The notes: a model not told the origin generated them from the letters alone. Shown: positions 15,347 to 56,041, counted from the stretch's first letter. The stretch: 64,000 nt of DNA from Alphaproteobacteria bacterium (GCA_965199175.1 OZ240684.1:1058337-1122336); one strand, 5' to 3'. Translations and numbers: made by a program.

Positions 15347-15357
15347 GGGGGAGTCGG

Positions 15358-15579: not shown

Positions 15580-15583
15580 TCCG

Positions 15584-22434: not shown

Positions 22435-22441
22435 GATATAT

Positions 22442-25190: not shown

Positions 25191-25331
25191 GTATCATTGA
25201 CATTTCAGGGTAGAATAACCGGATATTTGTTGGGTTTTTTTCTATCATCCTGCTAAATAAGGCTCTCTTTTTGTTTTTATTGATCCTTCTTATCTTTATT
25301 GATCCTTTTTGATTTCTTGTTCTTTTTGATA

Positions 25332-37998: not shown

Positions 37999-38072
37999 TG
38001 GCTGGGGCGGCAGGATTCGAACCTGCGATCACGGGATCAAAACCCGATGCCTTACCGCTTGGCTACGCCCCA
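37999..38072 (-). tRNA. tRNA-Gln (TTG)
   Basis: The reverse complement TGGGGCGTAGCCAAGCGGTAAGGCATCGGGTTTTGATCCCGTGATCGCAGGTTCGAATCCTGCCGCCCCAGCCA has anticodon TTG. Confidence 0.9.
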
Positions 38073-38153
38073 AATTCTCTCACCACAAAACGACCCTGTC
38101 AATCAGGGGCGCAGATTAAGCATTTTGTCCGCAAGGCGCAACGCCTTCAATCA

Positions 38154-38495
38154 ATGTCTGAGAGAATGATTTCCCAAACACCCGTTCGTGGCCAATTCAT
38201 TGTCTATGTTGAATGGGGAAAAGAAGGGATGAGTTTCCGCGATTTTACCGATAAAGAGCGGCGGCGGGATATCGTGATTTTACTCTCGCAAGGATCAACA
38301 GCCAGCCGATGGGCGGTGGGGGAGGCTCTGGCTGATTTAGGATACAAAGCATCCGATGACCTGGTCGGGAGCGACCTGGCGTGGCTGGATGAGCAAGGGC
38401 TGATTGAACAAGGAGCCGGAGGGCGGTGGTCCCTGACGACAAGGGGGCGCGATGTCGCACGGGGCCGGGCCTGGCATCCCGGACTGCGCCATTGA
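38154..38495 (+). CDS. Hypothetical phage protein
   Basis: 113-aa ORF directly upstream of, and translationally coupled (TGATG) to, the terminase small subunit gene. Confidence 0.4.
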   Translation: MSERMISQTPVRGQFIVYVEWGKEGMSFRDFTDKERRRDIVILLSQGSTASRWAVGEALADLGYKASDDLVGSDLAWLDEQGLIEQGAGGRWSLTTRGRDVARGRAWHPGLRH

Positions 38496-39028
38496 TGAGC
38501 AGACTATCTAAAATAGACCGGCTTCCGCTGGAAATCCGGCAGGAAATCCGGCGGCTGTATTTAGAAGAAAGTTACAACCTGAAGCAAATCGTCAGCTGGC
38601 TGGAGCGGCAGGGAATTGAAGCATCGCGCTCTTCGGTTGGTCGCTGGATGAAGAAGGCTCGTGAAGTCGCCGTCCGGCTGGCCGAAACAACACAGATTGC
38701 CAAAGCGATTGCTCAGGATATCGGGCCGGATATGGATCATTCAAAGACCCTGAGTGTCCTGGTCAACCTGGTTCAGGATGCCGCATTTCGGGTTCTGCAG
38801 GCTGGCACGCTGGAGATTAAAGAGATCGAGTCCTTAGGCCGTCTGGTCAAAAACACCGCAACGGCCCTAAAATTTAACACCGAACAAGAAGCTAAAGCAC
38901 GCCTGGAGAAGGCGGCCCGGGACAAGGCAAAAACCGATGCCAAAGCTCTCGCCAAAGTCGCCAACGAACAGGGCTTGTCGCCTGAATCGATTGCGGCCTT
39001 GAATGCTGCCTTAGGGATCAAAGATTAA
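38495..39028 (+). CDS. Phage terminase small subunit-like protein (Mu gp27/DUF3486-like)
   Basis: 177 aa, helical and basic; in position before terL. Confidence 0.6.
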   Translation: MSRLSKIDRLPLEIRQEIRRLYLEESYNLKQIVSWLERQGIEASRSSVGRWMKKAREVAVRLAETTQIAKAIAQDIGPDMDHSKTLSVLVNLVQDAAFRVLQAGTLEIKEIESLGRLVKNTATALKFNTEQEAKARLEKAARDKAKTDAKALAKVANEQGLSPESIAALNAALGIKD

Positions 39029-40515
39029 TGAAACCTTCGGTCAACACATTGTTGCCATATCAGCGCCGGGTCCTCCAGGCGGCGCAGCAACACTCAGTCT
39101 TGGTTGTTGAAAAATCGCGGCGGATTGGCATCACCTGGTCCCTGGGAGGGGCCGCCGTCCTGACGGCGGCAGCCCGGCGGGATGCCGGGGGCATGGATGT
39201 GCTTTACATTGGGACCTCCCGCGATATGGCGCGCGAGTTTATCGATGTGGCGGCCCAATGGGGTGAAGGGGTGGATGCGGCCATCGCTGAATATGGCGAG
39301 ACTTTGTGGCAGGGAAATGGTGAAAGCATTCAGGCGTTTCGCCTGAAGTTCAAGTCCGGATTTGAGGTTCTGGCTCTTTCATCACGGCCCCGGTCGCTGC
39401 GGGGTCGGCAGGGATTTGTCATTATTGATGAGGCGGCCTGGCATGACGATTTACCTGGCCTGATGAAAGCAGCGGTTGCGATGCTGGTTTGGGGTGGTCG
39501 GGTCTGTGTCGTTTCAACCCATAACGGGGTTGATAACCCGTTCAATTTGCTGGTCCAGGATTGCCGGTCAGGGGATAAGAAACATGAAGTGATACGGATT
39601 ACATTTTCTGATGCAATCAGAGACGGGCTGGCCGAGCGGATTGCCCACCAAAAAGGCGTTCCTTATTCGGCTGGTTTTTCGGTGGATTTTGAGGCAGGCA
39701 TCCGGGCTGAATATGGGGCAGATTCCGGGGAAGAACTGGATGCAATCCCGGCAGCAGGCCGGGGGGCTTTTTTGAATGCTGCCCTGATAGAAGCCCGGAT
39801 GGACCGGAGCATTCCGGTTTGTTGCTGGGCCGGGGATGGGGACCTGAAAGACTGGATCAAAGATCATCTTTCACCAATCATCGAAGGATGTGATCCATTG
39901 CTTTTAACCTATGTTGGCATGGATGTTGGCCGGACGGGTCACCCTTCAGCCATTTATATTCTGCAAACGGATCGAACTTTGAGGCGGCTGGGCCGGGGGT
40001 TGATAGAATTGCGCCGCCTTCCGTTTTCGGTTCAGGAAAAGATTGCTGATTTTTTGATTACCAGCTTGCCGCGGCTGATTTTGTTTTCGATTGATGCCGG
40101 AGGGATTGGGGCCGGCTTAGCCGAACGCCTCAATCAGAACTGGGGCAGCCTGGTCCGGGAAACCAAGCTGAGCCGCGAATGGTATCGCATCGCCATGCCG
40201 CCGCTCAGAGCTGCATTCGAAGATGGTTCGATTACCATTCCGTCATTTCTTGATTTACGATTAGATTTACGGGCCATTCGTGAGGAAGGGGGAATCGCAA
40301 AAATTGGTGGCGAGGCTTACAAAGGCAGTGATGGCCAGCCCCGTCATGGCGATGCAGCCATGGCTCTGGCCCTGGCCTATCAGGCCAGCCGGGAGCAAGA
40401 CAGCGCATATGCCTATGATGCCTGGCATGATCCGAATCCGGATGAAGAAGATATCCCTGACCCGGTCTGGGCCGGAGCCAGGGGGACATTTTATAAAAGA
40501 GGGCTGGCGTTATGA
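39028..40515 (+). CDS. Phage terminase large subunit (Mu gp28-like)
   Basis: N-terminal LLPYQRRVL..., Walker A-like VEKSRRIGITW, a C-terminal nuclease region with acidic residues. 495 aa. Confidence 0.8.
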   Translation: MKPSVNTLLPYQRRVLQAAQQHSVLVVEKSRRIGITWSLGGAAVLTAAARRDAGGMDVLYIGTSRDMAREFIDVAAQWGEGVDAAIAEYGETLWQGNGESIQAFRLKFKSGFEVLALSSRPRSLRGRQGFVIIDEAAWHDDLPGLMKAAVAMLVWGGRVCVVSTHNGVDNPFNLLVQDCRSGDKKHEVIRITFSDAIRDGLAERIAHQKGVPYSAGFSVDFEAGIRAEYGADSGEELDAIPAAGRGAFLNAALIEARMDRSIPVCCWAGDGDLKDWIKDHLSPIIEGCDPLLLTYVGMDVGRTGHPSAIYILQTDRTLRRLGRGLIELRRLPFSVQEKIADFLITSLPRLILFSIDAGGIGAGLAERLNQNWGSLVRETKLSREWYRIAMPPLRAAFEDGSITIPSFLDLRLDLRAIREEGGIAKIGGEAYKGSDGQPRHGDAAMALALAYQASREQDSAYAYDAWHDPNPDEEDIPDPVWAGARGTFYKRGLAL

Positions 40516-42071
40516 AATTGACAACCGCTGCCAAAAATATCAGCGAGAAAATCCAGTCGCTGTTTCAAAATAAACCTTCAGGAAATGCGTTGCGGATTGG
40601 GCCGGGGGATGATGGGCCGATGGGTCGGGTTAATCTTATGACATTGGCCAGAGCATCCTCAGCTGCTGATAGCGGGGATCCTTCGGCATGGTTCCGGCTG
40701 GCGGAATATCTGGAGCGTATTGATGCACATTATGCTGCCGTCCTGCAGCAGCGTAAAAATCACCTGATCCAGATGCCGATGCGTATTGAAACTGGTCCGG
40801 AAGTCCCAATCCAGGCCCGGCGGCTGGCGGAAGATTTTTTAGAAAGTGGCATCTTGCAAGAACAGCTGGGTTATTTTCTTGATGCGATTGGGAAAGGAAT
40901 CGCCATCATAGAAATGCGGTGGCGCAGCATGAATGGGCGGTGGTTGCCGTTTGAGTTTATTCATCACGGGCCGCATCTTTTTGCTTTCGATCAAAAAGGT
41001 CAAATTGGGTTGCGGGACCAGGCCGGGCGGTGGAAACAGCCGCCGCCAGCCCGTCTCCTCACGCCACGGATTGGATTGAAGACCGGATTGCCCTGGCAGA
41101 CGGGTCTGGCCCGGCCGGCCGGGCTTTCTATCATAGCCAAACAATTTGCCATCAGAGACTGGATGACTTTCCTGGAAACCTATGGCCGGCCGATACGGCT
41201 GGGTCGCTATGGCCGGGGGGTCAATTCCCAAGAAAAAAAGGAACTCTTAAACTCAGTTTATCATATCTTTTCTGATGCTGCGGCGATCATTCCCGATGCG
41301 ATGAACATTGAGTTTATTCAAGCCTCAACACGGGGCAGTCAGGAAGGGTATCAGAAGCTGGCCCAGTACATGGATCAGCAGCTTTCCAAGCTGGTCCTGG
41401 GCCAGACCACAACCACGGATGCAATCGCCGGCGGTCATGCGGTCAGCAAGGAACATGATAAGGTGCGCAGAGATATCGGCAGGGCTGATGCGCGGGCTAT
41501 TGAAAGATGCCTCAACAACCAGCTGATGCCGTGGTTGATTGGATTTAACCTGGATCAGGGATATGCCGGCTGGCCCGGTCAGGCCCTGCCCCAGTTCCGG
41601 ATAGGTGAGGAAAAGGAAGAAGAGCGAACCAATGATCCCCGGGCCTGGGCGGCAGCGTTAGAGAGCCTAACCAGTCTGGGGGTTGAGATTTCAGCTGATG
41701 AAGCCCGGCGGCGGCTGGGGCTGGGGGCACCACAAAAAGGTGAGGCTGTGCTTAAACTGCCCACACAACAGCGGACAATTGCAGGAGGAGCTGAGGGTGC
41801 CGCAAAACCGGATGACCGGGATTGGTTGGCGGAATTGGCCGCTGAGACACTGACCGAATGGGATCACGAAAGCATCACCGGTCCCTTAGGCAAGGTGGTC
41901 TTAGAATCTCAAACTTACGATGATCTGGGAACCCGGCTGGCAACCGTTGCTGATCAAATTCCCACCAAAAAGGTTGAAAATCAGTTGGCTCAGAGCCTGT
42001 TTGCAAGCCGGCTGGCTGGACGGGTCGGGGTTGAGGAAGATTCCGGAACGCAGGGACCCGTTAAAAAATGA
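40512..42071 (+). CDS. Phage portal protein (Mu gp29/DUF935-like)
   Basis: 519 aa, follows the terminase. DUF935-like conserved regions. Confidence 0.75.
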   Translation: MKLTTAAKNISEKIQSLFQNKPSGNALRIGPGDDGPMGRVNLMTLARASSAADSGDPSAWFRLAEYLERIDAHYAAVLQQRKNHLIQMPMRIETGPEVPIQARRLAEDFLESGILQEQLGYFLDAIGKGIAIIEMRWRSMNGRWLPFEFIHHGPHLFAFDQKGQIGLRDQAGRWKQPPPARLLTPRIGLKTGLPWQTGLARPAGLSIIAKQFAIRDWMTFLETYGRPIRLGRYGRGVNSQEKKELLNSVYHIFSDAAAIIPDAMNIEFIQASTRGSQEGYQKLAQYMDQQLSKLVLGQTTTTDAIAGGHAVSKEHDKVRRDIGRADARAIERCLNNQLMPWLIGFNLDQGYAGWPGQALPQFRIGEEKEEERTNDPRAWAAALESLTSLGVEISADEARRRLGLGAPQKGEAVLKLPTQQRTIAGGAEGAAKPDDRDWLAELAAETLTEWDHESITGPLGKVVLESQTYDDLGTRLATVADQIPTKKVENQLAQSLFASRLAGRVGVEEDSGTQGPVKK

Positions 42072-43375
42072 TTGATATCAAACCGTTGCCGCCGGAAGAA
42101 GCGGTACAATTTTTTCGCTCCAAAGGCTATGCGATTGGTTTTTCGTGGCGAGATATTTGGAAGGAAGAACATGCTTTAGCCTTTACAGTCGCCAAGGCAA
42201 TGCGCATTGATATCCTTGAAGATATTCGCGCCGCTGTCGATCAGGCCATATCGAAAGGGATTGCTTATTCTGAGTTTAAAAAAAATCTTGAGCCAATCCT
42301 TCAGGCCAAGGGCTGGTGGGGGCGCAAAAAACTCCGGGACCCGAAAACCGGAAGACTGGTCAATGCCCAGCTGGGGTCTAACCGGCGTCTTAAGATTATT
42401 TTTGATACCAATACAAGAATGGCCTATGCGGCTGGCCGGTGGCAGCGCATCGAGGCGGTTGCCGCGCAGCGGCCCTATCTGAGATATGTTGGGGTGCTGG
42501 ATGATCGCATCCGAGAACAACACCGGGGGTGGCATGGCACGGTGCGGTTGGTTGGTGATGGTTTCTGGGACAGCCATTACCCACCCAATGGCTGGCGATG
42601 CCGGTGTACGGTTGAGCAGCTTTCGCAAGATGATATGGATGCGTTTGGGTATGAAGTCTCCCCGCCGCCCAAAATCAAACATCGCCTGGTAAAAAACCGC
42701 CGAAACGGGCGGATGATGCGGGTCCCCGAAGGCATTTCCCCGGGATTTGATTATAATGTCGGCAAAGCCCGGCTGCGGGCCTATATCCCGCCGCCTTTAG
42801 ATGAGGGACCATTGCCGGTTTCCTTTCCTGCCGGGGTAAAACTGCCGCCATTGCCGCCAGCCCGGTCCTTGCCTGCCAGTATTTTAATTGATCCATCGAC
42901 TCCGGATGAAGAAGCGGTGGCACAGTTTCTGGGGTCATTCAGCCTCAGTGCCGGGCGATCAGGTGCCGGGCCGCAGGAAGCATTTGTGTTTATTGACAAG
43001 GCCGGGGAGCCGTTAGCAATCGGGCAGGATCTTTTCCGGCGAAGTGACGGGCAGCTTAAGGTTGGGAAACGGGGCCGAAAAAAATATCTGATGGCTTTGG
43101 CTCTGGCCCTTCAGGACCCGGATGAAATCTGGTGGCATTGGGAGCGGTCGCGTGATGGCCGGGCCTTATTGAGGCGGCGCTATCTGGCCCGGTTTGTATT
43201 CCCGCCCGGGGGCACCCCCCCTGCGGGTCCCCCAGGCGGGGGAATAATCCCAGGGGTGACAGTTTTTGACTGGCATAAATCAGGCTGGCGGGGTGTTACG
43301 ATTTTTCAAAGCGAAGGTGAAAATTATCTATTTAATCTCCGCAAAGGAACTTTGGCCTATCGCCGCCAAAAATGA
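42068..43375 (+). CDS. Phage head morphogenesis protein, MuF/SPP1 gp7 family
   Basis: Region REQHRGWHGTV...PNGWRCRC is typical of Phage_Mu_F. The C-terminal part carries an in-frame GC-palindrome insertion (FPPGGTPPAGPPGGG). Confidence 0.85.
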   Translation: MIDIKPLPPEEAVQFFRSKGYAIGFSWRDIWKEEHALAFTVAKAMRIDILEDIRAAVDQAISKGIAYSEFKKNLEPILQAKGWWGRKKLRDPKTGRLVNAQLGSNRRLKIIFDTNTRMAYAAGRWQRIEAVAAQRPYLRYVGVLDDRIREQHRGWHGTVRLVGDGFWDSHYPPNGWRCRCTVEQLSQDDMDAFGYEVSPPPKIKHRLVKNRRNGRMMRVPEGISPGFDYNVGKARLRAYIPPPLDEGPLPVSFPAGVKLPPLPPARSLPASILIDPSTPDEEAVAQFLGSFSLSAGRSGAGPQEAFVFIDKAGEPLAIGQDLFRRSDGQLKVGKRGRKKYLMALALALQDPDEIWWHWERSRDGRALLRRRYLARFVFPPGGTPPAGPPGGGIIPGVTVFDWHKSGWRGVTIFQSEGENYLFNLRKGTLAYRRQK

Positions 43376-43562
43376 AAAAGGCCGAAGCGGCGCCCCCTTC
43401 GGCCATTCAATCGGTTACGGACAGTCAGACGCCACATCTCGCCGATTGAATATAAGGCGACTATAGCGCGGTTGGCGTTCTGGGGCAAGGGGAAACGCAT
43501 AGAAAAAGCCAACGGCATTTAGCGGCGGCTTAACGGGGCTTTGAGAGGGGGTTGGCGGTTGA

Positions 43563-43766
43563 TTTTGTCTGGCCGGGGGACCCGGTTACCTCTGGGGGAC
43601 CCGTAGGGGGGGAACCCCCAGAGGGAAAACCGGAAAAACACCAATTACCTCTGGGGGACCCGTAGGGGGGGTACCCCCAGAGGGAAAAACAAAGACAGGG
43701 GCACCCCCAGGAGGAAAATCTGATACTCCTGGGGGACCCGTAGGGGGGGCACCCCCAGGAGGAAAA
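43563..43766 (+). repeat. Cluster of three GC-rich palindromic repeat elements (core cctctgggggacccgtagggggggtacccccagagg)
   Basis: Three copies spaced ~60-75 bp apart. Each forms a ~10-bp GC stem around a loop containing the palindrome gggggtaccccc. Confidence 0.85.
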
Positions 43767-43787
43767 TATGCCAATCTGGATGATCTG

Positions 43788-44213
43788 GTGGCGGCCTATG
43801 GCCGGGACCGGATGATCGAGTTGAGCGACCGCGATGGAACCGGATCGATCAATGCCGATGTGGTCGCTGCCGGGCTGGCGGCTGCCAGTGCTGAAATTGA
43901 TACCTATCTGAGGGGGGTGGCCCGGCTGCCGCTGCCAGATCCACCACCTGTGCTTAAACGGCTGGCGGTGGATCTGGCCTATGTTCATATGCTGGCTGAC
44001 CGGGCCGGGGAGAATGACCGGGCCATCCGGGGTGAAGCGATTGCGCTGTTGGACAAGATTGTGGCCGGGAAAATTAAACTGGGGCTGGATGCTCTGGCAT
44101 CACAAACTGCGGGGCACAGCGTCCAGGTGTTGTATCCGGATCACCGCCGTTGGGGAACATTTGGTTCCCCCGTGGGGGGTCCCCCCCTACGGGACCCCCA
44201 CGGGTCATTATAA
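43788..44213 (+). CDS. Phage head-tail joining protein, Mu gp36/DUF1320-like
   Basis: ...IDTYLRGVARLPLPDPPPVLKRLAVDLAYVHML... matches the DUF1320 core. GTG start. The in-frame upstream sequence YANLDDLVAAYG also looks native, but the only ATG (43768) is out of frame. Confidence 0.55.
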   Translation: MAAYGRDRMIELSDRDGTGSINADVVAAGLAAASAEIDTYLRGVARLPLPDPPPVLKRLAVDLAYVHMLADRAGENDRAIRGEAIALLDKIVAGKIKLGLDALASQTAGHSVQVLYPDHRRWGTFGSPVGGPPLRDPHGSL

Positions 44214-44647
44214 TGACCGGGGTGCGTCTGACCTGGCGGGGGATGGACCAGATTCGCCACCGCCTGACCGCGTTGGCCGGGCGGGATCTTAGCCACCCAA
44301 TGGCGTTGATTGCCGCCCATTTAGAAACCGCAACGCGTCATCGTTTTGGCTGGGGGACTTCTCCGGATGGGAAAGCCTGGAAGCCTTCAAAGCGGGTGCT
44401 TGCTCATGGGGGGCAGACCCTGGTTAAGAGCACAATTTTACGCGACAGCATCACCAGCCGCTCCTCGGACAAAGAGGCTGAGGTCGGAACCAATGTGATT
44501 TATGGAGCCATCCATCAGCTGGGCGGCCAGGCCGGACGCAAGCATGCAGTCAGGCTCCCGGCCCGGCCTTATCTGGGGCTGTCTTCGCGGGATGGGCAGG
44601 TTGTGGAAAAAATTATCGCAGACTTTCTGCGTAAAAGCCTGGCGTGA
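44213..44647 (+). CDS. Phage virion morphogenesis protein (Mu G / P2 gpS tail-completion family)
   Basis: 144 aa (MTGVRLTWRGMDQIRHRLTAL...). The upstream 60 nt of the ORF track are palindromic repeat sequence. Confidence 0.55.
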   Translation: MTGVRLTWRGMDQIRHRLTALAGRDLSHPMALIAAHLETATRHRFGWGTSPDGKAWKPSKRVLAHGGQTLVKSTILRDSITSRSSDKEAEVGTNVIYGAIHQLGGQAGRKHAVRLPARPYLGLSSRDGQVVEKIIADFLRKSLA

Positions 44648-45069
44648 TGATCATGATTACTCAAGTTATTTCTCAATTACAAAAAATAAAGACCCTGCGC
44701 CATGTAGCTGGCGCAGCGGCTCTGGCGGCGGTGAATGAAAAGTCCCTGCCCCCCAGCCCGACAGCTTATGTGGTCCTGCTCAATGAAGCTGCCGGGAACA
44801 ACCGGCTGACCGCCGGGATTGAGCAGGTGGTGACCGAAAAGATCGGGGTCATTTTGGTGGTCAAAAATCTGCGGGATGCCAAAGGTGAAGCGGCGGCCAA
44901 AGAAATTGAAACCCTGAGGGCAGCTGTGTTGGATCAGCTGATTGGCTGGTTGCCTTCGGGATATGACGATCCGTTGACATTTTCAGGCGGCGACCTGGCC
45001 GGGATGGAAGGTGGCGCGGTTTGGTATCAACTGATTTTCACGGCCAAACGGCGTTTTCGAAAAATTTAA
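44644..45069 (+). CDS. Hypothetical phage structural protein (possibly Mu gp37/tail-terminator-like)
   Basis: 141 aa; sits between the head-tail joining genes and the major tail gene. Confidence 0.4.
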   Translation: MMIMITQVISQLQKIKTLRHVAGAAALAAVNEKSLPPSPTAYVVLLNEAAGNNRLTAGIEQVVTEKIGVILVVKNLRDAKGEAAAKEIETLRAAVLDQLIGWLPSGYDDPLTFSGGDLAGMEGGAVWYQLIFTAKRRFRKI

Positions 45070-45079
45070 AGCGTAAAGG

Positions 45080-46019
45080 AAAAAATATGTTGCAGTTCAG
45101 AAAACGCCTGGTCCTGGCAAAGGTTGAAACAACTTACGGGGTTGATGCAGCCCCGGTCGGGGGGGATGCTATTTTGCTGCGTGAGGTCACCCTCACCCCT
45201 TATGCCGCAGACGCCCGGGACCGGGGGACCATCCGCGATGCATTAGGGGCATCGCCGCAAACCCTGGCCAATCGCCATGTGGAATTGACGGCCCAGGTTG
45301 AACTGGCCGGGGCAGGAACAGCAGGCAGTGTTCCCGGCTATGGTCCCTTGCTCAGAGGCTGTGGGTTTTCCCAAACCATTTCAGACGCCGATGATAATGA
45401 AAGCGTCATCTATCAACCCGTAAGTACCGGGTATGAATCAGTCTCGTTTCATTTTTACATCGATGGGGTTCGGCATAAGATGCTCGGCTCACGGGGCAAT
45501 GTGGCCTTCCGGATTGAAGCCGGAGAACCCCCGGTTATGGATTTTTCCTTCATCGGTTTGTGGGAGACACCAACCACAACCACCGCACCACAGGCCGATT
45601 TTACAGCCTTTCAAAAACCACTGGCCGTAGGGAAAGACAACACGCCGGTTTTTATGGCCCATGGAGCCAGCGCGATTGCCCGATCGATTGAGATCGATAT
45701 GAATAATGCGGTGAAACATATCGCGCTGATTGGGTCTGAGGAAGTCATCATCGGGGACCGGGATGCCGGGGGACGAATCAGCCTGGAAGCCAAACGGCCC
45801 AATGAACAGGATTGGTTTGCCACGGTGGCGGCTGAAAACACCGGCGCATTTACGGTGCAAAACGGCAACCAGGCCGGGGAGATTGTTGAGTTGGCTTTGC
45901 CAGCGGTGCAGATTCTGGCCCCTTCCTATGAGGATTATGAGGGCTATACCCTTTTTTCAGCCAATATCAAGGCCATCCCCCATAACGGTGATGATGAACT
46001 GGTTTTGACGGTTAAATAA
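45080..46019 (+). CDS. Putative major tail protein (lambda gpV position), possibly a capsid/structural protein
   Basis: 313 aa, high expression-style RBS, immediately upstream of the TAC/tape-measure genes. The family assignment is positional only. Confidence 0.45.
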
Positions 46020-46028
46020 AGACCAAAT

Positions 46029-46290
46029 GACCTCTGGGGGACCCGTAGGGGGGGTACCCCCAGAGGAAAAACCAGAAGACCCGTAGGGGGAAAACACCAA
46101 TTACCTCTGGGGGACCCGTAGGGGGGGTCCCCCCAGAGGGAGAACCAGAAGACCCGTAGGGGGAAAACACCAATTACCTCTGGGGGACCCGTAGGGGGGG
46201 TCCCCCCAGAGGGAGAACCAGAAGACCCGTAGGGGGAAAACACCAATTACCTCTGGGGGACCCGTAGGGGGGGTCCCCCCAGAGGGAGAA
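46029..46290 (+). repeat. Tandem array (~3.7 x ~72 bp) of the GC-rich palindromic element plus a conserved linker
   Basis: Unit cctctgggggacccgtagggggggtccccccagagggagaaccagaagacccgtagggggaaaacaccaattac. The linkers are identical between units, so it is not CRISPR-like. It ends at the RBS of the next gene. Confidence 0.9.
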
Positions 46291-46305
46291 CCAAGGAGAA
46301 AAAAT

Positions 46306-46647
46306 ATGTTCCGATTTGATCCCGACTATCAATTTTCCTGGCCGGTTTCTTTCAAAATGCCTCTGAATGGGGGAAAATGGGGCCAGCGCAGTTTTACGGT
46401 CACATATAAATATATGGCCGGGAAATTATTAACAACAGCCCTGAAGGGGGCTGAGAGTGATCCGCAGAAACTGCGCAGCCTTTTGAAAGAGGTCATGGTT
46501 TCAGTCGAAGGCATTGCCGGGACGGATGGAGAGGAACTGGATAGTTCCCCGGACCTTATTGATCAGCTGTTGGATGTGCCGGCGATTTTGAATGCAATTT
46601 TTTATGCCTATATCCAGGCATTGGCCGGGGTTGCGGAAAAAAACTGA
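46306..46647 (+). CDS. Putative phage tail assembly chaperone
   Basis: 113 aa, acidic, with position equivalent to lambda gpG ahead of the tape measure gene. Confidence 0.5.
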   Translation: MFRFDPDYQFSWPVSFKMPLNGGKWGQRSFTVTYKYMAGKLLTTALKGAESDPQKLRSLLKEVMVSVEGIAGTDGEELDSSPDLIDQLLDVPAILNAIFYAYIQALAGVAEKN

Positions 46648-46694
46648 TTGAAGCCGCGCGGGTCTGGGCGCGCGGCAGGAGGGATCATGAATTA

Positions 46695-46919
46695 TTGGCC
46701 ATTCATCCGGAAAACCAAACGGCCGTGCAGGCGTTTTTGGTCGGGTCCAGTCAGTGGCGGTTTGCCAGCGGGATTCCAGTCGGGCTGGATTATGAGGGGC
46801 TGAGGGCCGCATTAACATGGCACCGCCTCCGGCTCAGTCGGGATGACTTTACGAGGGTAAGGGTTTTGGAGGCAGCGGCGTTGGAAGCGATGCAAAAAAA
46901 GATGGCTAAAAAAACATGA
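46695..46919 (+). CDS. Hypothetical small phage protein (possible chaperone frameshift partner, gpT-like)
   Basis: 74-aa ORF with a TTG start, between the TAC and tape measure genes. A short overlapping ATG ORF starts at 46687 in another frame. Confidence 0.3.
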   Translation: MAIHPENQTAVQAFLVGSSQWRFASGIPVGLDYEGLRAALTWHRLRLSRDDFTRVRVLEAAALEAMQKKMAKKT

Positions 46920-49768: not shown

Positions 49769-50301
49769 CGCAAGAACCCCTCATTCCCGCGGGAACACCC
49801 CCGGCAGGAAGCCAACTCTTTCAAAAATGGCCGGAGATACTCCCGCTGCCCGAGCGGGATGGCTATCAGCTGAAATTGAATGACGGCGTCATGCGCACAA
49901 GTATGGAAGGCGGGCCACCACGCGCCAGACGGGTCACCACCGATGTTGAATCGTTGTATCAGGCCCGGTTCGTTTTTGACGAAGATCAGTTCCTGACCTT
50001 CCAGGCCTGGTTCCAGGAAATTGGAGCCGGCGGTGCGGCGGCGTTTTTAATCCCGCTGCGCAACGGGCTGGGGCTGGTTGAACAACAGGCCCGGTTTGCC
50101 GGGCCGTATGAAGCCCGGCTGGATGGGCATCTCTGGCGGGTTACAGTCTCACTGGTGGTGCGTGGAGCACCCATGCTGTCAGGTGAAATGCTTGAACTGG
50201 TTCTGGCCGAACCGATCAATGGCCTGATCAATGCCATTGATCAATTCAGCATCCTGGTTCACGCCACCCTGCCCGATCATTCAATTTTTGGCTTAAATTA
50301 G
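49765..50301 (+). CDS. Phage minor tail protein (lambda gpM / GTA g12-like position)
   Basis: 178 aa, translationally coupled to the TMP gene. Confidence 0.5.
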   Translation: MTQEPLIPAGTPPAGSQLFQKWPEILPLPERDGYQLKLNDGVMRTSMEGGPPRARRVTTDVESLYQARFVFDEDQFLTFQAWFQEIGAGGAAAFLIPLRNGLGLVEQQARFAGPYEARLDGHLWRVTVSLVVRGAPMLSGEMLELVLAEPINGLINAIDQFSILVHATLPDHSIFGLN

Positions 50302-50313
50302 AGAGATAACATT

Positions 50314-51690
50314 ATGACCACGACTTTGCGTGAAAGAATCACCGCCGCCGTTACCGCGATTGAAACGGCAGGCCGTAAATTGCATCAGATTGTTCATGGC
50401 GGGGCTGAGATGACTGTCTCAACCGATGGTGGCCCGGTTAAATCACTGGCTAAAGTGGTTGCCGATCTGGAGCAACAAGGCGGGGAGATCCCGGCCCAGG
50501 TTGCCCATGCCCAAAGATACCGGACTGAGGCACGGGAAGCCCGGGATGAAACCCGGGATGCTCTGCAAACCGCGCGTATCACCAAAGCCAGCCCGACCGA
50601 AGCCCGTGCGGGCACCAACAACACCAAACTGATGACGCCGTTGCGGGTTAAGGAAGCCACAGATACTCGCCGGGCCACCGGAGCCGAGGCCCGTACCGGA
50701 ACCAATAATACTAAGCTGATGACGCCGTTGCGGGTTAAACAAGCCACAGAGCATTTCAATGCTCCCCGTTTTTCTCAGACCTCGCCCTATATCCAAACCA
50801 TCAAGACACCCGGTGATACCCGGCATTACTACCCGGTCCAGCTGGGGGGTGGGTCATTTCTGGGCGATGTGCTGATCCAAAGACATCAACATATGGATGC
50901 TGTGTATAGTGGGGGGCTTTTATTTGATGTGCGATGCTATCCAGATGGACGGGGGTATTGGCCGAAACGATATGATGTTCGGGCTTATCAGGAAGTGGTT
51001 TACCGAAACACAGGAAGCCACACACCACAATTTATTGCCAAGCTGCAAGTGGATGCCGGGGCACGGCAAGGAAAAACAGTTATCTGGCTGAGGGGTGCGA
51101 CCACCTATCGGGTGTGGTTGTCGGATGGGGTGGCGGCACTCTCCAATGCTCAGGGACGCATTGGGACTCAAACGTTTGGGGTGTTGGATAAAAACTATGC
51201 TCCCCTGTTGCCTAAATACACAGATAGGGGGGGATTGCCGGTTGGCACTATAATTGCCTTTTCAGGTCCACAAACTGTCCCCGGTTGGCTCCGTTGCAAT
51301 GGGGCGCGGGTTCTAAAGAGCCATTACAACGACCTCTATAATATCATCGGTCACAATTACGCATTGACCACAGACACCACCGCTAACAAAGCCAACCATT
51401 TCCGCGTACCTGATACACGCGATTTATTCATTCGCGGAGCGACACAAAGCAACCCGGTCTCGTCAATCAGAGAACAAGGTGCTTTGAGTGTTCCCCCAAC
51501 TGGGTGGGGAGTATTCGGGCATCATCCTGCACCTACCAGGCCGGCCACCAGAGGGCGACTCCTTGTTGGCAGTGGGATTGGGGAACACAGAGAAGTTTTG
51601 GAGAGCGTTTTTCAAGCCGGACAAAATGTAAATGTGACGGGCAATGTTGTCCCCCGACATCTTAATCTTATCCATTGGATCAAATTTTAA
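50314..51690 (+). CDS. Phage tail fibre protein with tail-collar domain
   Basis: GTIIAFSGPQTVPGWLRCNGARVLKSHYNDLYNIIGHNYALT...FRVPDTRDLFIRGA matches the collar motif. Tandem 20-aa repeat (TNNTKLMTPLRVK[EQ]AT) in the N-terminal shaft. Confidence 0.75.
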   Translation: MTTTLRERITAAVTAIETAGRKLHQIVHGGAEMTVSTDGGPVKSLAKVVADLEQQGGEIPAQVAHAQRYRTEAREARDETRDALQTARITKASPTEARAGTNNTKLMTPLRVKEATDTRRATGAEARTGTNNTKLMTPLRVKQATEHFNAPRFSQTSPYIQTIKTPGDTRHYYPVQLGGGSFLGDVLIQRHQHMDAVYSGGLLFDVRCYPDGRGYWPKRYDVRAYQEVVYRNTGSHTPQFIAKLQVDAGARQGKTVIWLRGATTYRVWLSDGVAALSNAQGRIGTQTFGVLDKNYAPLLPKYTDRGGLPVGTIIAFSGPQTVPGWLRCNGARVLKSHYNDLYNIIGHNYALTTDTTANKANHFRVPDTRDLFIRGATQSNPVSSIREQGALSVPPTGWGVFGHHPAPTRPATRGRLLVGSGIGEHREVLESVFQAGQNVNVTGNVVPRHLNLIHWIKF

Positions 51691-51705
51691 CCTGAGGTGT
51701 CTTTT

Positions 51706-52227
51706 ATGAAAATCTATCACTACAACCCTGAAACGGGTCTTTTACTCGGTGAGGACAAAGCAACCCAATCACCCATTCTGGTTGATGACGAAGGCCGGGA
51801 ACTGCAAGAACCAGATGCAGAAAATCCTGACCATTGGCTGATCCCGGCTTATGCGACTGAGACAGCCCCGCCTAAGGCTGGCAAAAATCAGCAAGCTGTT
51901 TGGGGCGGGGACTCATGGTCATTGCAGGCCATACCCACGCCACCGCCAGAGCCACCGCCACCATCTCTGAGTGAGCGCAAGGCCACAATGGTGATCCGCA
52001 TCAAGACGGAAGCTCGTTACCGGATTGAGGCCGTCATGCCAACCTGGAAGGTGGTGCGTTCTCTGACCGGTGGCCCGGCAGTTGGGACTGATACCCAGGC
52101 TGAGGCGCAAAGATTACGGGCTGTTTCAAACACCCTGGAAACCCAGATCAACGCCATGAATGCTGAGGCACTGGACGCCTTTGATCCCGGCGATGATACG
52201 CATTGGGTAGAAAGTCCGGACTCATGA
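51706..52227 (+). CDS. Tail fibre assembly protein (Tfa family)
   Basis: N-terminus MKIYHYNPETGLLLGE and the PDHWLIP motif are typical of Caudovirales tail-fibre assembly chaperones. Confidence 0.65.
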   Translation: MKIYHYNPETGLLLGEDKATQSPILVDDEGRELQEPDAENPDHWLIPAYATETAPPKAGKNQQAVWGGDSWSLQAIPTPPPEPPPPSLSERKATMVIRIKTEARYRIEAVMPTWKVVRSLTGGPAVGTDTQAEAQRLRAVSNTLETQINAMNAEALDAFDPGDDTHWVESPDS

Positions 52228-52775
52228 AACCGCCCGCCTGGTCACAAAAAGCACAAGAAACGCTGGCCCAGTCCCCGGCTGATGAAGTCGTTCTGGAAAC
52301 CTTCGAATTCCGGCATCCTCTGTTTATCACAGAAGATAACCAACCGGCCCCAATCCGGGTGGTCAGGGATATCCGGCCCGGCGATGTTCTGCGGGCCAAA
52401 CTGGAAAGAAATGCCCCGGTCAATGGCGGGCAATGGGTTGATTTTATTTGCGTGGCCTTTGAGGCCACCTTACCAAAAATAAGCGAAGAAGCCGCCGCCG
52501 ATTTTATTCTGACCATTGACAACACTGATCCGGTGATTGCCCAGTCACTCCGCCAGGCTGCAACCGGCAGCGACCCGGTATTGATGATCTTCAGGCCCTA
52601 TCTGGCCAGTGATCTCACAACACCACAATGGCTGCCGCCGCCGGAATTTACACTCAGCCAGGCCCGTATCGGTGGTGGGCAGATCCAGGCCCGGGCCAGG
52701 GCATTTAATCTGGCCGATCGTTCGGTCCCGTCCCGGCTCTATCAATCCGGCGATTTTCCCGGCCTGGTCCGATGA
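52224..52775 (+). CDS. Phage minor tail protein (lambda gpL / GTA g13-like position)
   Basis: 183 aa. The ATG overlaps the upstream stop (ATGA). It precedes the NlpC/P60 gene as in lambda M-L-K-J. Confidence 0.5.
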   Translation: MKPPAWSQKAQETLAQSPADEVVLETFEFRHPLFITEDNQPAPIRVVRDIRPGDVLRAKLERNAPVNGGQWVDFICVAFEATLPKISEEAAADFILTIDNTDPVIAQSLRQAATGSDPVLMIFRPYLASDLTTPQWLPPPEFTLSQARIGGGQIQARARAFNLADRSVPSRLYQSGDFPGLVR

Positions 52776-53161
52776 GTTGGCCGACAAAATATATCGGGCT
52801 GGCCTATGATCAGAGCGAAAAAAACGGGCACACCTGCTGGTCGCTGGTCCGGGCCATCCAGCTGCAAGAGTTTGGTCGTAAGGTCCCCGATATTCCCTAT
52901 CACCACAACATCCGGACTCGTTTGATTTTTTTTCGGGATCATCCCGAACGGCAAAGATGGCAAGCGGCAAAAACACCGCGGGAAGGCGACTGTGTGTTGT
53001 TGGCTCAGGCCCGGTTCCCCAGCCATTGCGGGGTCTGGAGCCAGGCTGATGGCGGAGGCGTGGTTCATGCGGTCGAAGGGGTCGGGGTGGTCTGGCAGAA
53101 CAGAGCGGCATTGAGGGCCCATGGCTGGCGACTGGAAGGATTTTATCGATATGCCCCATAA
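52772..53161 (+). CDS. Phage tail NlpC/P60-family peptidase (lambda gpK / GTA g14-like)
   Basis: Cys motif GHTCWSLV and His motif HCGVW; 129 aa. Confidence 0.7.
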   Translation: MSWPTKYIGLAYDQSEKNGHTCWSLVRAIQLQEFGRKVPDIPYHHNIRTRLIFFRDHPERQRWQAAKTPREGDCVLLAQARFPSHCGVWSQADGGGVVHAVEGVGVVWQNRAALRAHGWRLEGFYRYAP

Positions 53162-55478
53162 TCTGATGATCGCCGCCAATCCGTTCCGGCCCCGGATGAT
53201 ATCTGTGCAAGCCGGGGAGAGTCTGACCGCTCTGGCCGACCAGTTGGATCTCTCGGGGTTAAGGTGTCAGATCAATGCTGAGGATATTCCGCCCATAGCC
53301 TGGGCAACCCGGCGGCTTGAGGCCGGAGAACACTGTGTTTTTTATGCCCATCTGCAAGGTGGGGGTGGCGGGTCTAATCCTCTGCGAGCCATTTTAATGA
53401 TTGCGGTGGCTGTTGCCGCCGGGCCACTGGCCGGGGCCATCGCCCCAGGGCTGGCAGCAGGCAGCCTTGGTTTCAGCGCGCTTCAGATTGGAATCACCGT
53501 TGCCGGCGCAGCCCTGGTTTCGGCTATTCTGCCGCCGCCAGATTTTTCAGCAGCATCCCCCAATTTTGGGGCCAATGGGCTGGCGGCACCATCCCCAACC
53601 TATTCGCTGCAGGCCCAGGGGAACCAGGCCCGGCTGGGGCAGCCCATCCCGGTCATCTATGGCCGCCACATCGTCTATCCGGATTTTGCCGCAACACCCT
53701 GGACGGTGTTTGATGAACAGGATGAGCAATATCTCCATCAGCTTCTGGTGATTGGGCAGGGGGACTATGACATTGAGGCCATGCGGATTGAGGACAGCCC
53801 GCTGAGTTCTTTTGACGGGGTGGAGACAGAGATTATTCCCCCAGATGGCCGGGTGACTCTGTTTGACCCCCATATTATCCAGGCCAGTGAAGTGGTGGGT
53901 CAGGAAGCACTGAGCAGCAGTGATGACGGGGGGTGGCTGGGGCCGTTTGCCGCCAACCCAGCCGGGACCCAGGCCACCAAAATCGGCATTGATATTGTCG
54001 CACCGCGCGGGCTGTTTTTCGCAAATAATCAAGGGAATCTAGAAAACAAATCATTATCATTTGAGGCCGCAGCCAGAACCATTGATGCCGATGGAAAAGC
54101 CACCGGAAATTGGCGGCGTTTGGGCCGACATAACCTGAGTGCTGCTAAAAACAAACCAGTACGGAGATCTTACAGCTATAGCGTGGCCCAAAACAGGTAT
54201 GAGGTGCGGTTTCGAAGACTGGATACCCGCGATACACGGGCACGGGTCGGGCATGATCTGCGCTGGGCCGGGCTGAAAGCCACCCTGACCGACCAGTCCA
54301 ATTTTGGTGGTGTGACCTTACTCGCAGTAAAAATGCGGGCAACCGATCAGCTTTCCAATCGGTCGGCCAGACTGATCAATGTCATTGCTCAGCGTCGCAT
54401 TCCAAAATGGACGAAAAAGGGGGGCTGGAGCACATCCAAAGCCACGGCTTCTCCGGCCTGGGCATTGGCTGATCTGGCGAGAAACAGCATCTATGGCGCG
54501 GGCCTGCCCGAACGCCGGCTGGATTTAGAAGGACTGGCGGCCTGGGCAGCAACCTGTGCCAGCACCGGGGATGAGTTCAACGGGGTCTTTGATACCTCGC
54601 TCAGTTTCCATCAGGCAGCGCAAAGGATTGCTCGATGTGGCCTGGCTGCGCCCATCCAGCAGAACGGGACACTCTCAATTATCCGTGATGAAACCAGGAC
54701 CATCCCCACCGCCATGTTTACACCGCGCAATATTGTGAAAGGCTCCTGCTCAATCCGGTTCAACCTGCCCACAGAACACAGCCCAGATGGTGTTGAGGCC
54801 GAATATTTTGACCGCAAAAATTGGGCACGCAAAACCATCACAGTCGGTCTGGGTGAAGCCAGCCCAAAACAGCCAGCTAAAATCCAACTATTCGGCGTTA
54901 CGGATAAAAAACAGGCCCAGAGGCTGGCATTCCACAGTGCAGCTGAAACCCGATACCGCCGCATAACTGTTGTGTTCCGGACCGAAATGGAAGGACTGAT
55001 CCCTCATTTTGGTGACCTGATTGCCCTCAGCCATCCGGTGCTGGTGGCCAGTCAGGGCGGAGAGATTGTGCGTTGGGATTCTAAAACGCAAATTGCAACC
55101 GTGAGCGAAGCCTTGCCCCTTGAATGGGATGCCGAAGATGAGACCTGGCTGATTGCCTTAAGAAAGCCCAACGGTGCCCCCAGCGGCGATCATCCGGTCC
55201 GCCGGGTTGGGGAAGATCAGCTCCGGATCATCGGTAAAATTGATTTTCCAATCTATACCGGCGGACAACGCGAACGGACACACTACTCGATTGGGCCGGG
55301 GCAGGCATTTGACCTGAAAGCCCGGGTCATCAAGATCATGCCCCGGGCCAACCTGCAGGTTGAAATAACCGCGGTTAATGATGATGACCGGGTCTTTGAT
55401 GTCCCCGATGACTATCTCAATACCCCGCCCGCAAAAAAAGGCGGGGGCCGGGGCGTGACAGCGTCCCGAACCGAGTGA
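53151..55478 (+). CDS. Phage host-specificity / central tail fibre protein (lambda gpJ / GTA g15-like)
   Basis: 776 aa, follows the M-L-K-like genes. N-terminal hydrophobic Gly/Ala-rich segment. Confidence 0.65.
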   Translation: MPHNLMIAANPFRPRMISVQAGESLTALADQLDLSGLRCQINAEDIPPIAWATRRLEAGEHCVFYAHLQGGGGGSNPLRAILMIAVAVAAGPLAGAIAPGLAAGSLGFSALQIGITVAGAALVSAILPPPDFSAASPNFGANGLAAPSPTYSLQAQGNQARLGQPIPVIYGRHIVYPDFAATPWTVFDEQDEQYLHQLLVIGQGDYDIEAMRIEDSPLSSFDGVETEIIPPDGRVTLFDPHIIQASEVVGQEALSSSDDGGWLGPFAANPAGTQATKIGIDIVAPRGLFFANNQGNLENKSLSFEAAARTIDADGKATGNWRRLGRHNLSAAKNKPVRRSYSYSVAQNRYEVRFRRLDTRDTRARVGHDLRWAGLKATLTDQSNFGGVTLLAVKMRATDQLSNRSARLINVIAQRRIPKWTKKGGWSTSKATASPAWALADLARNSIYGAGLPERRLDLEGLAAWAATCASTGDEFNGVFDTSLSFHQAAQRIARCGLAAPIQQNGTLSIIRDETRTIPTAMFTPRNIVKGSCSIRFNLPTEHSPDGVEAEYFDRKNWARKTITVGLGEASPKQPAKIQLFGVTDKKQAQRLAFHSAAETRYRRITVVFRTEMEGLIPHFGDLIALSHPVLVASQGGEIVRWDSKTQIATVSEALPLEWDAEDETWLIALRKPNGAPSGDHPVRRVGEDQLRIIGKIDFPIYTGGQRERTHYSIGPGQAFDLKARVIKIMPRANLQVEITAVNDDDRVFDVPDDYLNTPPAKKGGGRGVTASRTE

Positions 55479-55566
55479 AAGGAGCACTCCTGACCAACAC
55501 CGGCCGCATGTCGGCCAACCCGCCACCGCGATACACGGCGGGGCATATTTTAGAGTGAGTTTATTC

Positions 55567-55782
55567 ATGGAGTCTAGTTTTGCCGACCAAAATCAATGCA
55601 CACCCATCAAGCCCGTGGCCGCCTATGTCGGCGGCAAACGCCTACTAGCCAAACGGATTATCGAGACAATCGGGACGGTCCCTCATGTCTGCTATGTTGA
55701 GCCTTTTGTTGGCATGGGTGGGGTCTTCTTTCGCCGTCCGGCCCGGCATTCTTTCTTGGCATGTTTGGGGAAAGTGTTCTGA
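55567..55782 (+). pseudogene. Truncated N6-adenine DNA methyltransferase (Dam/D12-class) N-terminal fragment
   Basis: AAYVGGKRLLAKRI and YVEPFVGMGGVFF correspond to Dam motifs. The ORF stops after ~72 aa and the downstream 250 bp are non-coding. Confidence 0.55.
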
Positions 55783-56041
55783 AATTAAACGGACTTGAGC
55801 ATTTTTTTCAGAAGTATCAGTTCACCGGGCCGATCCATGTCTTAGATCAGATACGCCAAGCCGCTGAGCGGGTGATGATGAAGCCGCTCACAAACATCTA
55901 GCCGCGACAAACTTATCCACAAAAAAGCGATGCAAAAGTAACCCGCCATTTACGCAAAAATAACCCGCCAGCTACAGTCTAAAACAACATCAATCACAAA
56001 GCATTGATACAGTTTCTGCCATGCCCCCATCCGGCCCGGCA

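Follow-up and report, generated by a model that had tools for sequence, protein, structure and literature searches.

The window analysed here is a 64-kb stretch of a 2,069,867-bp source chromosome, in which phage-derived DNA runs from a left limit at about 38.11-38.23 kb to a right limit at about 55.98 kb. The host neighbours on the left are genes for a methyltransferase, a lipoprotein and tRNA-Gln (37999-38072, minus strand; ARAGORN and Rfam tRNA), and as the promoter scan places a promoter-like site for tRNA-Gln at 38074-38102, host DNA extends to at least about 38.1 kb. On the right are ispE, a TPR protein gene and the gene for ETF-QO. The GC content of the element is 0.54-0.585, as against 0.48-0.50 in the flanks. 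In Pfam and PHROG profile searches 18 ORFs matched families of phage packaging, connector and tail proteins, and their order is the canonical one; all phage features given below are on the plus strand.

The first surviving phage gene is a small ORF (38229-38495) of the uncharacterised family phrog_436 (E 3.9e-11; the match spans residues 77-164 of the long ORF), with its stop overlapping the start of TerS (TGATG). TerS is of the Mu gp27 family (38495-39028; PF11985, E 1.5e-22; phrog_426) and is followed by TerL (39028-40515; phrog_2, E 2.5e-33), for which the Pfam search gave no match and which has 41-45% identity to the gene at the TerL position in related viral contigs. Next are a Mu-type portal gene (40512-42071; PF06074, E 4.8e-81; tblastn matches to portals of Rhodovulum and Rhodobacter phages) and a gene for a fusion of MuF, the head-morphogenesis protein, with a PBECR2 nuclease-fold domain (42068-43375; PF04233), the closest homologue having 66% identity and the next no more than 57%. 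The gp27-gp28-gp29 (portal)-gp30 (MuF) block is thus present, with PF11985, phrog_2, PF06074 and PF04233 in sequence. Beyond a gap lie the gp36/DUF1320 head-tail adaptor gene (43788-44213; E 1.2e-22) and that for a gpG-like virion morphogenesis or tail completion protein (44213-44647; Phage_tail_S, PF05069, E 3.6e-29; phrog_26).

The siphovirus tail module is also present, with terminator, tube, chaperones, tape measure and M/L/K/J-like proteins. The terminator gene (44644-45069; PF23840, E 3.1e-33) precedes that for the major tail tube protein (45087-46019; PF18906, Phage_tube_2, E 1e-16; phrog_290, E 2.6e-28), an ORF of 310 aa from the ATG at 45087 or 332 aa from a TTG at 45021. This ORF, earlier called 313 aa, had been read as a putative major tail protein, a reading that an HK97-fold capsid identity would have overturned, and the profile scan settles for the tail tube: the capsid is rejected on the PF18906 and phrog_290 matches and on the similarity to RcWaterboi gp46 (34% identity over 97%), which is annotated 'tail tube protein'. 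Then come two tail assembly chaperone ORFs (46306-46647 and 46695-46919, the latter DUF1799; Pfam, PHROG), the 950-aa tape measure protein (46916-49768; PF20155, PF09718; phrog_2335), a 'virion structural protein' at the gpM position (49765-50301; phrog_384), a collar-domain tail fibre (50314-51690; Pfam, PHROG) and a fibre-assembly-like protein (51697-52227; Pfam, PHROG) with 60% identity to the product of a gene in a sister-genome prophage. The tail genes end with those for L-like DUF1833, K-like NlpC/P60 and a J-like tip protein of 785 aa (52203-55478; Pfam, PHROG), and the last 13 codons of J have a homologous counterpart in the sister-genome prophage, where it lies upstream of Dam.

At the right end (55555-55888) only an N-terminal fragment of Dam is left: a 75-aa ORF at 55555-55782 includes 64 Dam residues, which a deletion has brought up against the 3' portion of the gene that follows. 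Mapped on the sister-genome prophage L089, 55438-55739 corresponds to 3118-3415 and 55739-55888 to 4235-4384, so that an internal deletion of 819 bp at about 55739 has taken out the greater part of Dam together with the beginning of the following gene. The stretch at 55904-55976 is a putative phage right end, with a 26-mer in common with the sister-genome prophage, two direct repeats of the form AAAA(G/A)TAACCCGCCA and a terminus in GCTACA, soon after which the homology to that prophage ends. The count of the direct-repeat motif is not above chance for the window, and the element has no left end.

The whole 64-kb window is without a gene for an integrase, transposase, repressor, lysis protein, protease, scaffold or capsid, and neither the element nor its flanks matched a holin, endolysin or regulator family. 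The left arm is lacking, the remnant beginning beside the promoter of the host tRNA-Gln, and no gene for a DDE transposase A or a B ATPase occurs in the interval from tRNA-Gln to TerS or in the remainder of the window. Promoter-like sites are at chance level in the promoter scan (13 against 11 +/- 3.5). The sequence-only reading had described a late-gene-only prophage remnant unable to make a capsid, with a truncated Dam methylase, with the order TerS-TerL-portal-MuF, DUF1320, gpG-like, tail proteins and a 950-aa tape measure, and with no early, regulatory, transposase or integrase genes between tRNA-Gln and TerS; the profile calls, the Dam deletion and the missing head genes discussed below bear this out.

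The gap between MuF and gp36 is only 412 bp (43376-43787), with three palindromic repeats inside it, whereas all six related viral contigs compared carry 3.3-4.6 kb there. The earlier suggestion that the capsid block is missing from a repeat-filled gap is thus upheld. The block was annotated in two of the six relatives, L001 and L011, and a gpI protease (PF10123) was recognised in both (E about 1e-75 and 4e-76), the gpT capsid family (PF10124, E 4e-124) being recognised in L001 only; the L011 block has a cement-like ORF and an unrecognised 312-aa ORF at the capsid position. The gpI protease, gpZ scaffold and gpT major head protein are absent from our element and have left no remnants. Frame-shifted head genes, which could have overturned the earlier reading, were not found, as tblastn with seven head proteins of this kind against the whole window gave no match better than E 0.3 and six-frame translation of the gap gave repeat-derived sequence. 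The element therefore belongs to the group of Mu-like head phages by descent only, since the head genes that it lacks are present in the relatives examined. The first part of the gap (43376-43495) is a conserved non-coding stretch downstream of MuF, with a hairpin and a dyad and about 88% identity to the nearest relative, L153. Comparison with the six relatives puts the deletion junction at 43573-43773, which comprises a half core GGGGGACCCG at 43575-43584 and the three hairpin repeats. The three have matched flanks, and the half core is the only possible recombination scar. There being no close intact relative, the deleted block is inferred from distant ones.

The search for a capsid gene elsewhere on the 2.07-Mb chromosome, of which the 64 kb were read directly, was an indirect one by way of best-120 homologue lists. 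The list for a cognate-type gpT (52-100% identity) includes no source-chromosome protein, and neither does that for the capsid protein of the sister genome. Several other contigs of the MuF list recur among the gpT homologues, with 69-86% identity to the gpT query. As far as these best-120 lists go, a cognate capsid gene would appear to be lacking from the rest of the source chromosome, where the earlier reading thought the head genes might lie. In the sister genome (a chromosome of 2,099,932 bp) there is no MuF homologue among the best 120 hits, which go down to 44% identity; it shares with our element only the fibre-assembly and Dam module, located within another prophage, and has other Mu-like-head prophages with the same right-end module. 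The capsid-less arrangement was seen in none of 33 related viral loci and not in the sister genome.

The repeats at the junction are members of a hairpin family specific to the clade, in which a 26-nt G/C core, GGGGGACCCGTAGGGGGGGNACCCCC, is invariant and the covarying flanks form a stem of 5-20 bp. There are nine copies in the window, where none is expected, and at least 23 in eight blocks of the sister genome; in the sampled blocks the repeats are over-represented in prophage DNA, and the sampled sites are mostly prophage. The apical core does not vary, whereas the basal stem differs from locus to locus and yet remains complementary: seven basal pairs change on both sides, with 56 compensatory cells against 19.4 +/- 4.5 in shuffles (none of 500 reached the observed value) and much lower values in slid controls. 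Four 73-nt units form a tandem array between the tube and chaperone genes (46015-46297). In MuF a repeat is inserted in frame (43194-43247), adding about 10-11 residues that are absent from all five aligned homologues. In gp36 the flank of the third junction repeat overwrites the native start codon; the frame is open through that repeat and has no start codon upstream of the conserved Tyr-4, an SD and ATG created by the repeat flank are out of frame, and the only start left is an internal GTG. The 3' end of gp36 is formed by a repeat in reverse orientation (44160-44213). The repeats are also mobile, the hypF-hypC junction being empty in the window and carrying a 120-nt composite insert in the sister genome.

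As short palindromes in many copies, mobile between sister genomes and supported as hairpins, these repeats are REP or MITE-like. Their core contains GTAG, a motif of RAYT-associated REPs, which for the repeats here is only a lead; the window has no candidate gene for a transposase linked to them. It is conceivable, though we think it unlikely, that they are a new kind of small mobile element, with a basal stem made or corrected locally, that prefers prophage DNA of this alphaproteobacterial clade, inserts in frame in structural genes and drives deletions, such as the loss of the capsid genes here, by recombination between copies. A stem made or corrected locally would explain flanks that are locus-specific yet complementary, and the hairpin repeat would then be an agent of prophage inactivation and not a bystander.

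We conclude that the region is probably a defective (cryptic) prophage of about 17.8 kb, derived by deletions from a temperate siphovirus that belonged to the phages with a 'Mu-like head' (RcapMu, RC1 or vB_PeaS-P1 type), which are 38-40 kb when intact. The entire left arm, where the repressor, transposition or integration genes, middle genes and lysis genes would lie, is lost. About 3.3-4.6 kb between MuF and gp36 have been deleted, together with the gp36 start codon, and 819 bp are lost over the bulk of Dam and the beginning of the following gene. Hairpin repeats of the host clade sit at the head-gene junction, in the array between tube and chaperone genes, in MuF and at the end of gp36, and recombination at repeat cores may have produced the head-gene deletion; there are no repeats at the junctions of the left-arm loss and the Dam deletion. 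The remnant is probably not expressed as a unit and would make no particles, since it lacks capsid genes, lysis genes and a late activator and its promoter signal does not exceed chance. At least two independent deletions (head block and Dam) are documented in addition to the missing left arm. However, other than the gp36 start and Dam, all surviving ORFs are full length and without frameshift, which is also to be expected under selection for function; they may be intact only because decay ran by deletion and fairly recently.

The sequence-only reading had left the choice between a decaying prophage and a domesticated tailocin or GTA module. The first is supported and the second is not, as the damage points to decay: the early and lysis arm is missing, the gp36 start is overwritten, Dam has a deletion, repeats lie in coding sequence, packaging genes are kept with no lysis or regulatory genes, the GC contrast is not ameliorated, nothing close to the element is seen in the sister genome and the best-120 check gave no cognate capsid elsewhere. 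The best of the alternatives, itself improbable, is a domesticated flexible-tail bacteriocin (F-type tailocin), for which the tail was kept to kill competitors and the head genes discarded. F-type tailocins such as the F-pyocins have a lambda-like tail gene set and no capsid gene, and so has our element, with a complete and apparently intact siphovirus tail from terminator to J that includes a fibre and fibre-assembly gene. However, tailocin loci are not known to have terminase, portal or MuF and have their own lysis cassette and regulators, whereas our element has kept TerS, TerL, portal, MuF and the head-tail adaptors, which would be useless to a tailocin, and there is no holin/endolysin pair or regulator in the element or flanks. 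The lost start codon of gp36, the 286-nt repeat array between the tube and chaperone genes, the unameliorated GC and the lack of a close sister-genome counterpart are also against it.

Even less probable is a GTA-like or satellite-like module that supplies terminase, portal and tail and takes its capsid from elsewhere in the genome or from a co-resident helper phage of Mu-like type. In its favour, packaging genes and connectors are intact, replication and integration genes are absent, and the right-end module is shared with other Mu-like-head prophages of the sister genome. However, the best-120 lists for the cognate gpT and the sister prophage capsid include no source-chromosome protein, the gp36 adaptor needed for head-tail joining has no start, late activator and promoter signal are absent, and neither the 33 related loci nor the sister genome has the arrangement. 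GTA clusters as a rule carry prohead protease and major capsid protein and are vertically inherited across species; our element resembles RcGTA in being a late-gene-only cluster with no replication or integration genes in an alphaproteobacterial host, but has neither of these two proteins and no close sister-genome counterpart. It is highly improbable that the head genes were collapsed out between direct repeat copies in a single-contig metagenome assembly: direct repeats are exactly at the junction, the source is a single contig (2.07 Mb), as is the sister long-read MAG, and G-runs are error-prone in long reads, but the repeats of about 45-75 nt are far below long-read length, the left-arm and Dam losses have no junction repeats, and the gp36 start codon went too, unlike a clean inter-repeat collapse.

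With regard to known phages, a Mu-type head with a siphovirus tail had by implication been treated as an oddity, but is the standard layout of RcapMu/RC1/D3112-type phages, and the closest cultured phages for both portal and tube are Mu-like-head siphoviruses of Alphaproteobacteria. RcapMu, which has siphovirus morphology, was the first transposing phage reported for that class (PMC5488378). In RcapMu and RcWaterboi of Rhodobacter capsulatus the Mu-type packaging and head block is likewise followed by the siphovirus tail (tube, chaperones, tape measure, M/L/K/J), and tube proteins of this type have 34-35% identity over 97% of length and an equivalent position. The full order in RcWaterboi (MW677528) is repressor, transposase A/B, lysis, terminase, portal, MuF, G, peptidase, scaffold, MCP, tube, TMP and M/L/K/J. 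Intact phages of this type are 38-39 kb and have repressor, transposase A/B, lysozyme/holin, peptidase, scaffold and MCP, none of which our element has. It differs also in having gpG behind gp36 and not ahead of the protease as in RcWaterboi, and in two additional genes, one for a fibre and one for fibre assembly, that lie between M and L. The best cultured portal matches are Rhodovulum phage vB_RhkS_P1, Pelagibaca phage vB_PeaS-P1, Rhodobacter phage RC1 and Rhodovulum phage RS1 (32-37% identity), and the tube is matched also by RC1, RS1, a Rhodovulum P5-host phage and Thiobacimonas phage vB_ThpS-P1. [quoted passage not shown] The paper that defined the group sets several members apart from true transposing Mu-like phages, so a Mu-like head does not imply a transposable ancestor (PMC5488378).

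The prophage is an ordinary broken one and of low interest; apart from the small hairpin repeats by which it has been colonised, themselves a modest curiosity, nothing in it is unusual. The repeats resemble the Rickettsia palindromic elements (RPEs) and REP or MITE-like elements in being short multi-copy palindromes that differ in presence between related genomes. RPEs are the classic example of in-frame insertion into protein-coding genes (PMC10969869), and the repeat in MuF is likewise in frame. However, RPEs are about 150 bp, and the repeats here, with a 26-nt core and 5-20 bp stem, are much shorter; they also differ from the RPE and REP comparison set in the invariant apical core, in the locus-specific complementary basal stem and in having sites that are mostly prophage.

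We think it highly probable that the element lying at about 38.2-56.0 kb of the window, between host tRNA-Gln and ispE, is a decaying prophage of the siphovirus group with Mu-like heads. In Pfam and PHROG scans every large + strand ORF from 38.2 to 55.8 kb was assigned a phage late function, and the assignments match the late-gene order proposed in the sequence-only reading. The GC content is 0.54-0.585, against 0.48-0.50 in the flanks. Those are ordinary host DNA: to the left lie genes for a methyltransferase and a lipoprotein as well as tRNA-Gln, and to the right ispE and genes for a TPR protein and ETF-QO. A search of Rfam over 37.5-56.5 kb at E <= 1 gave tRNA-Gln and one sub-threshold miRNA chance match on a repeat and nothing else, and a promoter scan found no excess of promoter-like sites over chance within the element.

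The remainder of the window is host DNA, with asd, phaC, an OmpA-family protein, an aminotransferase, homoserine dehydrogenase, two-component regulators and a hydrogenase-maturation (hyp) operon. The hyp cluster is 82% identical (window 17685-24259) to the corresponding locus in OZ000551.1, an alphaproteobacterial MAG of 2.10 Mb that we take on this identity to be a sister species; the N-terminus of HypC, MCLGIP, was read directly. The wider block (9830-24215), taken from this identity and the HypC motif to be a hydrogenase and hyp maturation cluster, has a GC content of 0.52-0.55, versus 0.47-0.49 in adjoining host DNA. ARAGORN calls a 90-nt tRNA-His with anticodon ATG at 26297-26386, inside the aspartate-semialdehyde dehydrogenase ORF (25299-26390) at its 3' end, and this call is very likely a false positive.

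With regard to the ancestor, the best cultured matches to the portal and tube proteins are vB_RhkS_P1, vB_PeaS-P1, RC1, RS1, RcapMu and RcWaterboi, siphoviruses of Alphaproteobacteria with Mu-type heads. The genome of RcWaterboi (38.3 kb), an RcapMu-type phage of Rhodobacter capsulatus, has a repressor, transposase A/B, middle genes, lysozyme/holin, terminase, portal, MuF and G, followed by peptidase, scaffold, major capsid protein, connectors, tube, chaperone, tape measure and M/L/K/J-type tail proteins. About 17.8 kb is left in our element of an expected 38-40 kb. Some phages in the Mu-like head group have been set apart from true transposing phages (PMC5488378). No transposase gene survives in the element, and its right end shares a 26-mer with a sister-genome prophage and has two direct repeats and a terminus ...GCTACA at 55976, soon after which the likeness to that prophage ends. 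These right-end features may be signs of a transposing ancestor and are suggestive only. The tRNA-Gln gene is ruled out as attachment site, as the remnant is on its 5' (promoter) side. Nor is a rearrangement scar to be seen in the two genes, for tail fibre and fibre assembly, that separate M from L, since Achromobacter phage phiAxp-1 likewise carries two genes in that position.

One loss is that of the head genes. The stop codon of MuF (43375) and the first possible start of gp36, the DUF1320 head-tail adaptor (43788), are separated by 412 bp that include three palindromic repeats, much as the sequence-only reading had it (about 400 bp, filled by such repeats). Related viral loci were gathered by MuF, and in the six of the 33 in which MuF and gp36 are both visible the spacing is 3.3-4.6 kb. 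In the related locus L001 the block comprises a Mu-like gpI protease (PF10123, E 1e-75), an ORF with no family, gpT (PF10124, E 4e-124) and one more ORF, and in another, L011, gpI (E 4e-76) is accompanied by a cement-like protein and, in capsid position, a 312-aa ORF. Seven head-block proteins from these two loci were compared by tblastn with all 64 kb and the best E value was 0.3, while six-frame translation of the gap gave only repeat-derived Gly/Pro peptides. The absence of head genes from the gap is thus upheld, and the broader claim of an element with no capsid also survives, as we found neither frame-shifted head genes nor a capsid identity for the 313-aa ORF at 45087-46019. In profile-HMM scans that ORF matches Pfam Phage_tube_2 and PHROG 290, and it has 34% identity over 97% of its length to gp46 of RcWaterboi, annotated as tail tube protein and in the syntenic position. 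It is therefore a tail tube protein and not a capsid protein; a sequence search of the PDB with it gave no match.

Deletions are also cleanly mapped against relatives at the gp36 start and from Dam to the next gene, as for the head block. In gp36 the conserved N-terminal residues Y-A-x-L-D-D-L are still there, and no stop codon interrupts the frame back through the third gap repeat. The right flank of that repeat (AGGAGGAAAA) has taken the place of the three codons where homologues have their start, and the start that is left is an internal GTG with no Shine-Dalgarno sequence. Within 43755-43815 the same flank creates a perfect AGGAGG-N5-ATG, with the ATG at 43768, heading an ORF of 15 codons in a different frame from gp36. 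In the case of Dam, window 55438-55739 aligns with 3118-3415 of L089, a locus in the Dam-carrying Mu-like prophage of the sister genome, and window 55739-55888 with 4235-4384, both at 76%. The two alignments meet at 55739, which indicates an 819-bp deletion that has left 64 N-terminal codons of a 279-aa Dam joined to the end of the gene that follows.

On the left, the first phage ORF starts at 38229, beside a strong promoter-like site for the host tRNA-Gln at 38074-38102, so the left arm is lost. Measured against RcWaterboi, about 15 kb of expected early, middle and lysis genes has gone, and the junction is placed within about 120 bp. The J-like gene's last 13 codons (55438-55478) and a stretch upstream of the sister prophage's Dam (L089 3118-3158) are homologous, which suggests that the 3' end of J is a recombination joint. 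J is possibly shortened (785 aa, versus 1331 aa in phiAxp-1); truncation is open to doubt in that other relatives split J near the same point, yet the last 13 codons are foreign.

The sequence-only reading had offered as alternatives a decaying prophage and a domesticated tail/packaging module, and the evidence favours the first. An F-type tailocin is unlikely, since the packaging genes have been kept and lysis and regulatory genes are absent. A GTA- or satellite-like module that draws on capsids encoded elsewhere is very unlikely: the gp36 start is lost, and the capsid-less arrangement is not conserved in the sister genome, whose chromosome gave no match among the MuF matches listed and shares only the fibre-assembly and Dam module, within a different prophage. 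Nor did the best database matches include a capsid protein from the source contig. In the protein database the window's MuF is carried by a single contig of 2,069,867 bp, and no contig of that length is among the best 120 matches to either gpT of L001 (down to 52% identity) or the protease-capsid fusion of the sister prophage (to 47%). The gpT matches do include several other contigs with MuF relatives, 69-86% identical to the query, and a cognate gpT on the source chromosome would therefore probably have been among the best 120; the evidence from these lists is indirect. Collapse of the head genes during assembly is most improbable, the repeats being far shorter than long reads, and the left-arm loss and Dam deletion having no repeats at their junctions. 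The case shows that to call a "head-less tail cluster" a tailocin or GTA takes evidence of conservation, lysis genes and regulation.

MuF itself (42068-43375) is fused to a toxin-like domain of PBECR2 nuclease fold. In L153, the nearest MuF relative, the C-terminus of MuF is found again just downstream as an orphan duplicate (2976-3101), and in a sister-genome prophage (L096 2322-3944) MuF is fused to an ADP-ribosyltransferase. The non-coding stretch after MuF (43376-43495) is about 88% identical to L153 2836-2955, versus 66% for the MuF protein. It includes a hairpin with compensatory change (GGCCGAAG/CTTCGGCC versus GGCCGGAG/CTCCGGCC) and a dyad, TTCAATCGG...CCGATTGAA, and may be a late-operon regulatory site.

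The repeats share an invariant 26-nt core, GGGGGACCCGTAGGGGGGGNACCCCC, with nine copies in the window against 0 expected by chance, all at 43.19-46.30 kb. There is a reverse copy inside the MuF coding sequence (43193-43247), three copies and a half core at the head-gene junction (43573-43773), a reverse copy that forms the 3' end of gp36 (44160-44213) and, between the genes for tube and chaperone, four 73-nt units in tandem (46015-46297). The copy in MuF is inserted in frame: five homologues are shorter by about 10-11 residues at that point, and in L153 a variant core is in frame at another position. The element folds as a long hairpin. Its flanks vary by locus yet are complementary over 5-20 bp, with seven basal pairs changed on both sides and 56 compensatory cells versus 19.4 +/- 4.5 in shuffles (0/500); slid controls fall far below the observed covariation. 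In several copies the basal stem pairs anti-SD-like CCTCT/CTCCT with SD-like AGAGG/AGGAG, and such pairing could sequester ribosome-binding sites. The tandem arrays are not CRISPR, as the inter-repeat segments are identical.

The exact core has no match in IMG/VR or JGI metagenomes and no matching Rfam family. A reference-genome pattern scan used a version with 16 specified bases, and among the matches listed, which do not include the window's own genome, most are chance matches in GC-rich genomes. The same core is however present in at least eight 8-kb blocks of OZ000551.1 (L036, L083, L089, L092, L096, L136, L143 and L151), and as far as the scans show the family is restricted to the window genome and this one MAG. 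Host intergenic copies lie after genes that are gyrA-like and mfd-like by N-terminal sequence, beside an oxidoreductase-like ORF and at hypF-hypC; prophage-like sites are two capsid-bearing regions, a lysozyme remnant and a Mu-like tail/Dam end. Of the 14 sampled sites about 10 are in prophage-like DNA, and in this sample the family is over-represented there.

The hypF-hypC junction is empty in the window (19950-19960), whereas the sister genome has a 120-nt composite insert (L036 5590-5705) with one full core and two partial ones. The insert ends in GCCATTTATAAGGAG shortly ahead of the hypC start, and this tail is also found after repeats at L151 and L083. The repeat has thus moved since the two genomes diverged. 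In the sister genome several copies carry left and right flanks of different types, a sign that copies have recombined, and this makes repeat-mediated deletion of the head genes plausible. The part of the repeats in that deletion is inferred only, since the flanks of the three junction copies match and the sole candidate scar is the half core at 43575-43584.

The hairpin repeats, with their invariant core, covarying locus-specific stems, in-frame insertions and prophage bias, are the only part that might interest a specialist, as a possible small model of host repeats that invade and erode prophages. As a prophage remnant the element is of little importance, and is a further example of a well-known kind, the deletional decay of a temperate phage.
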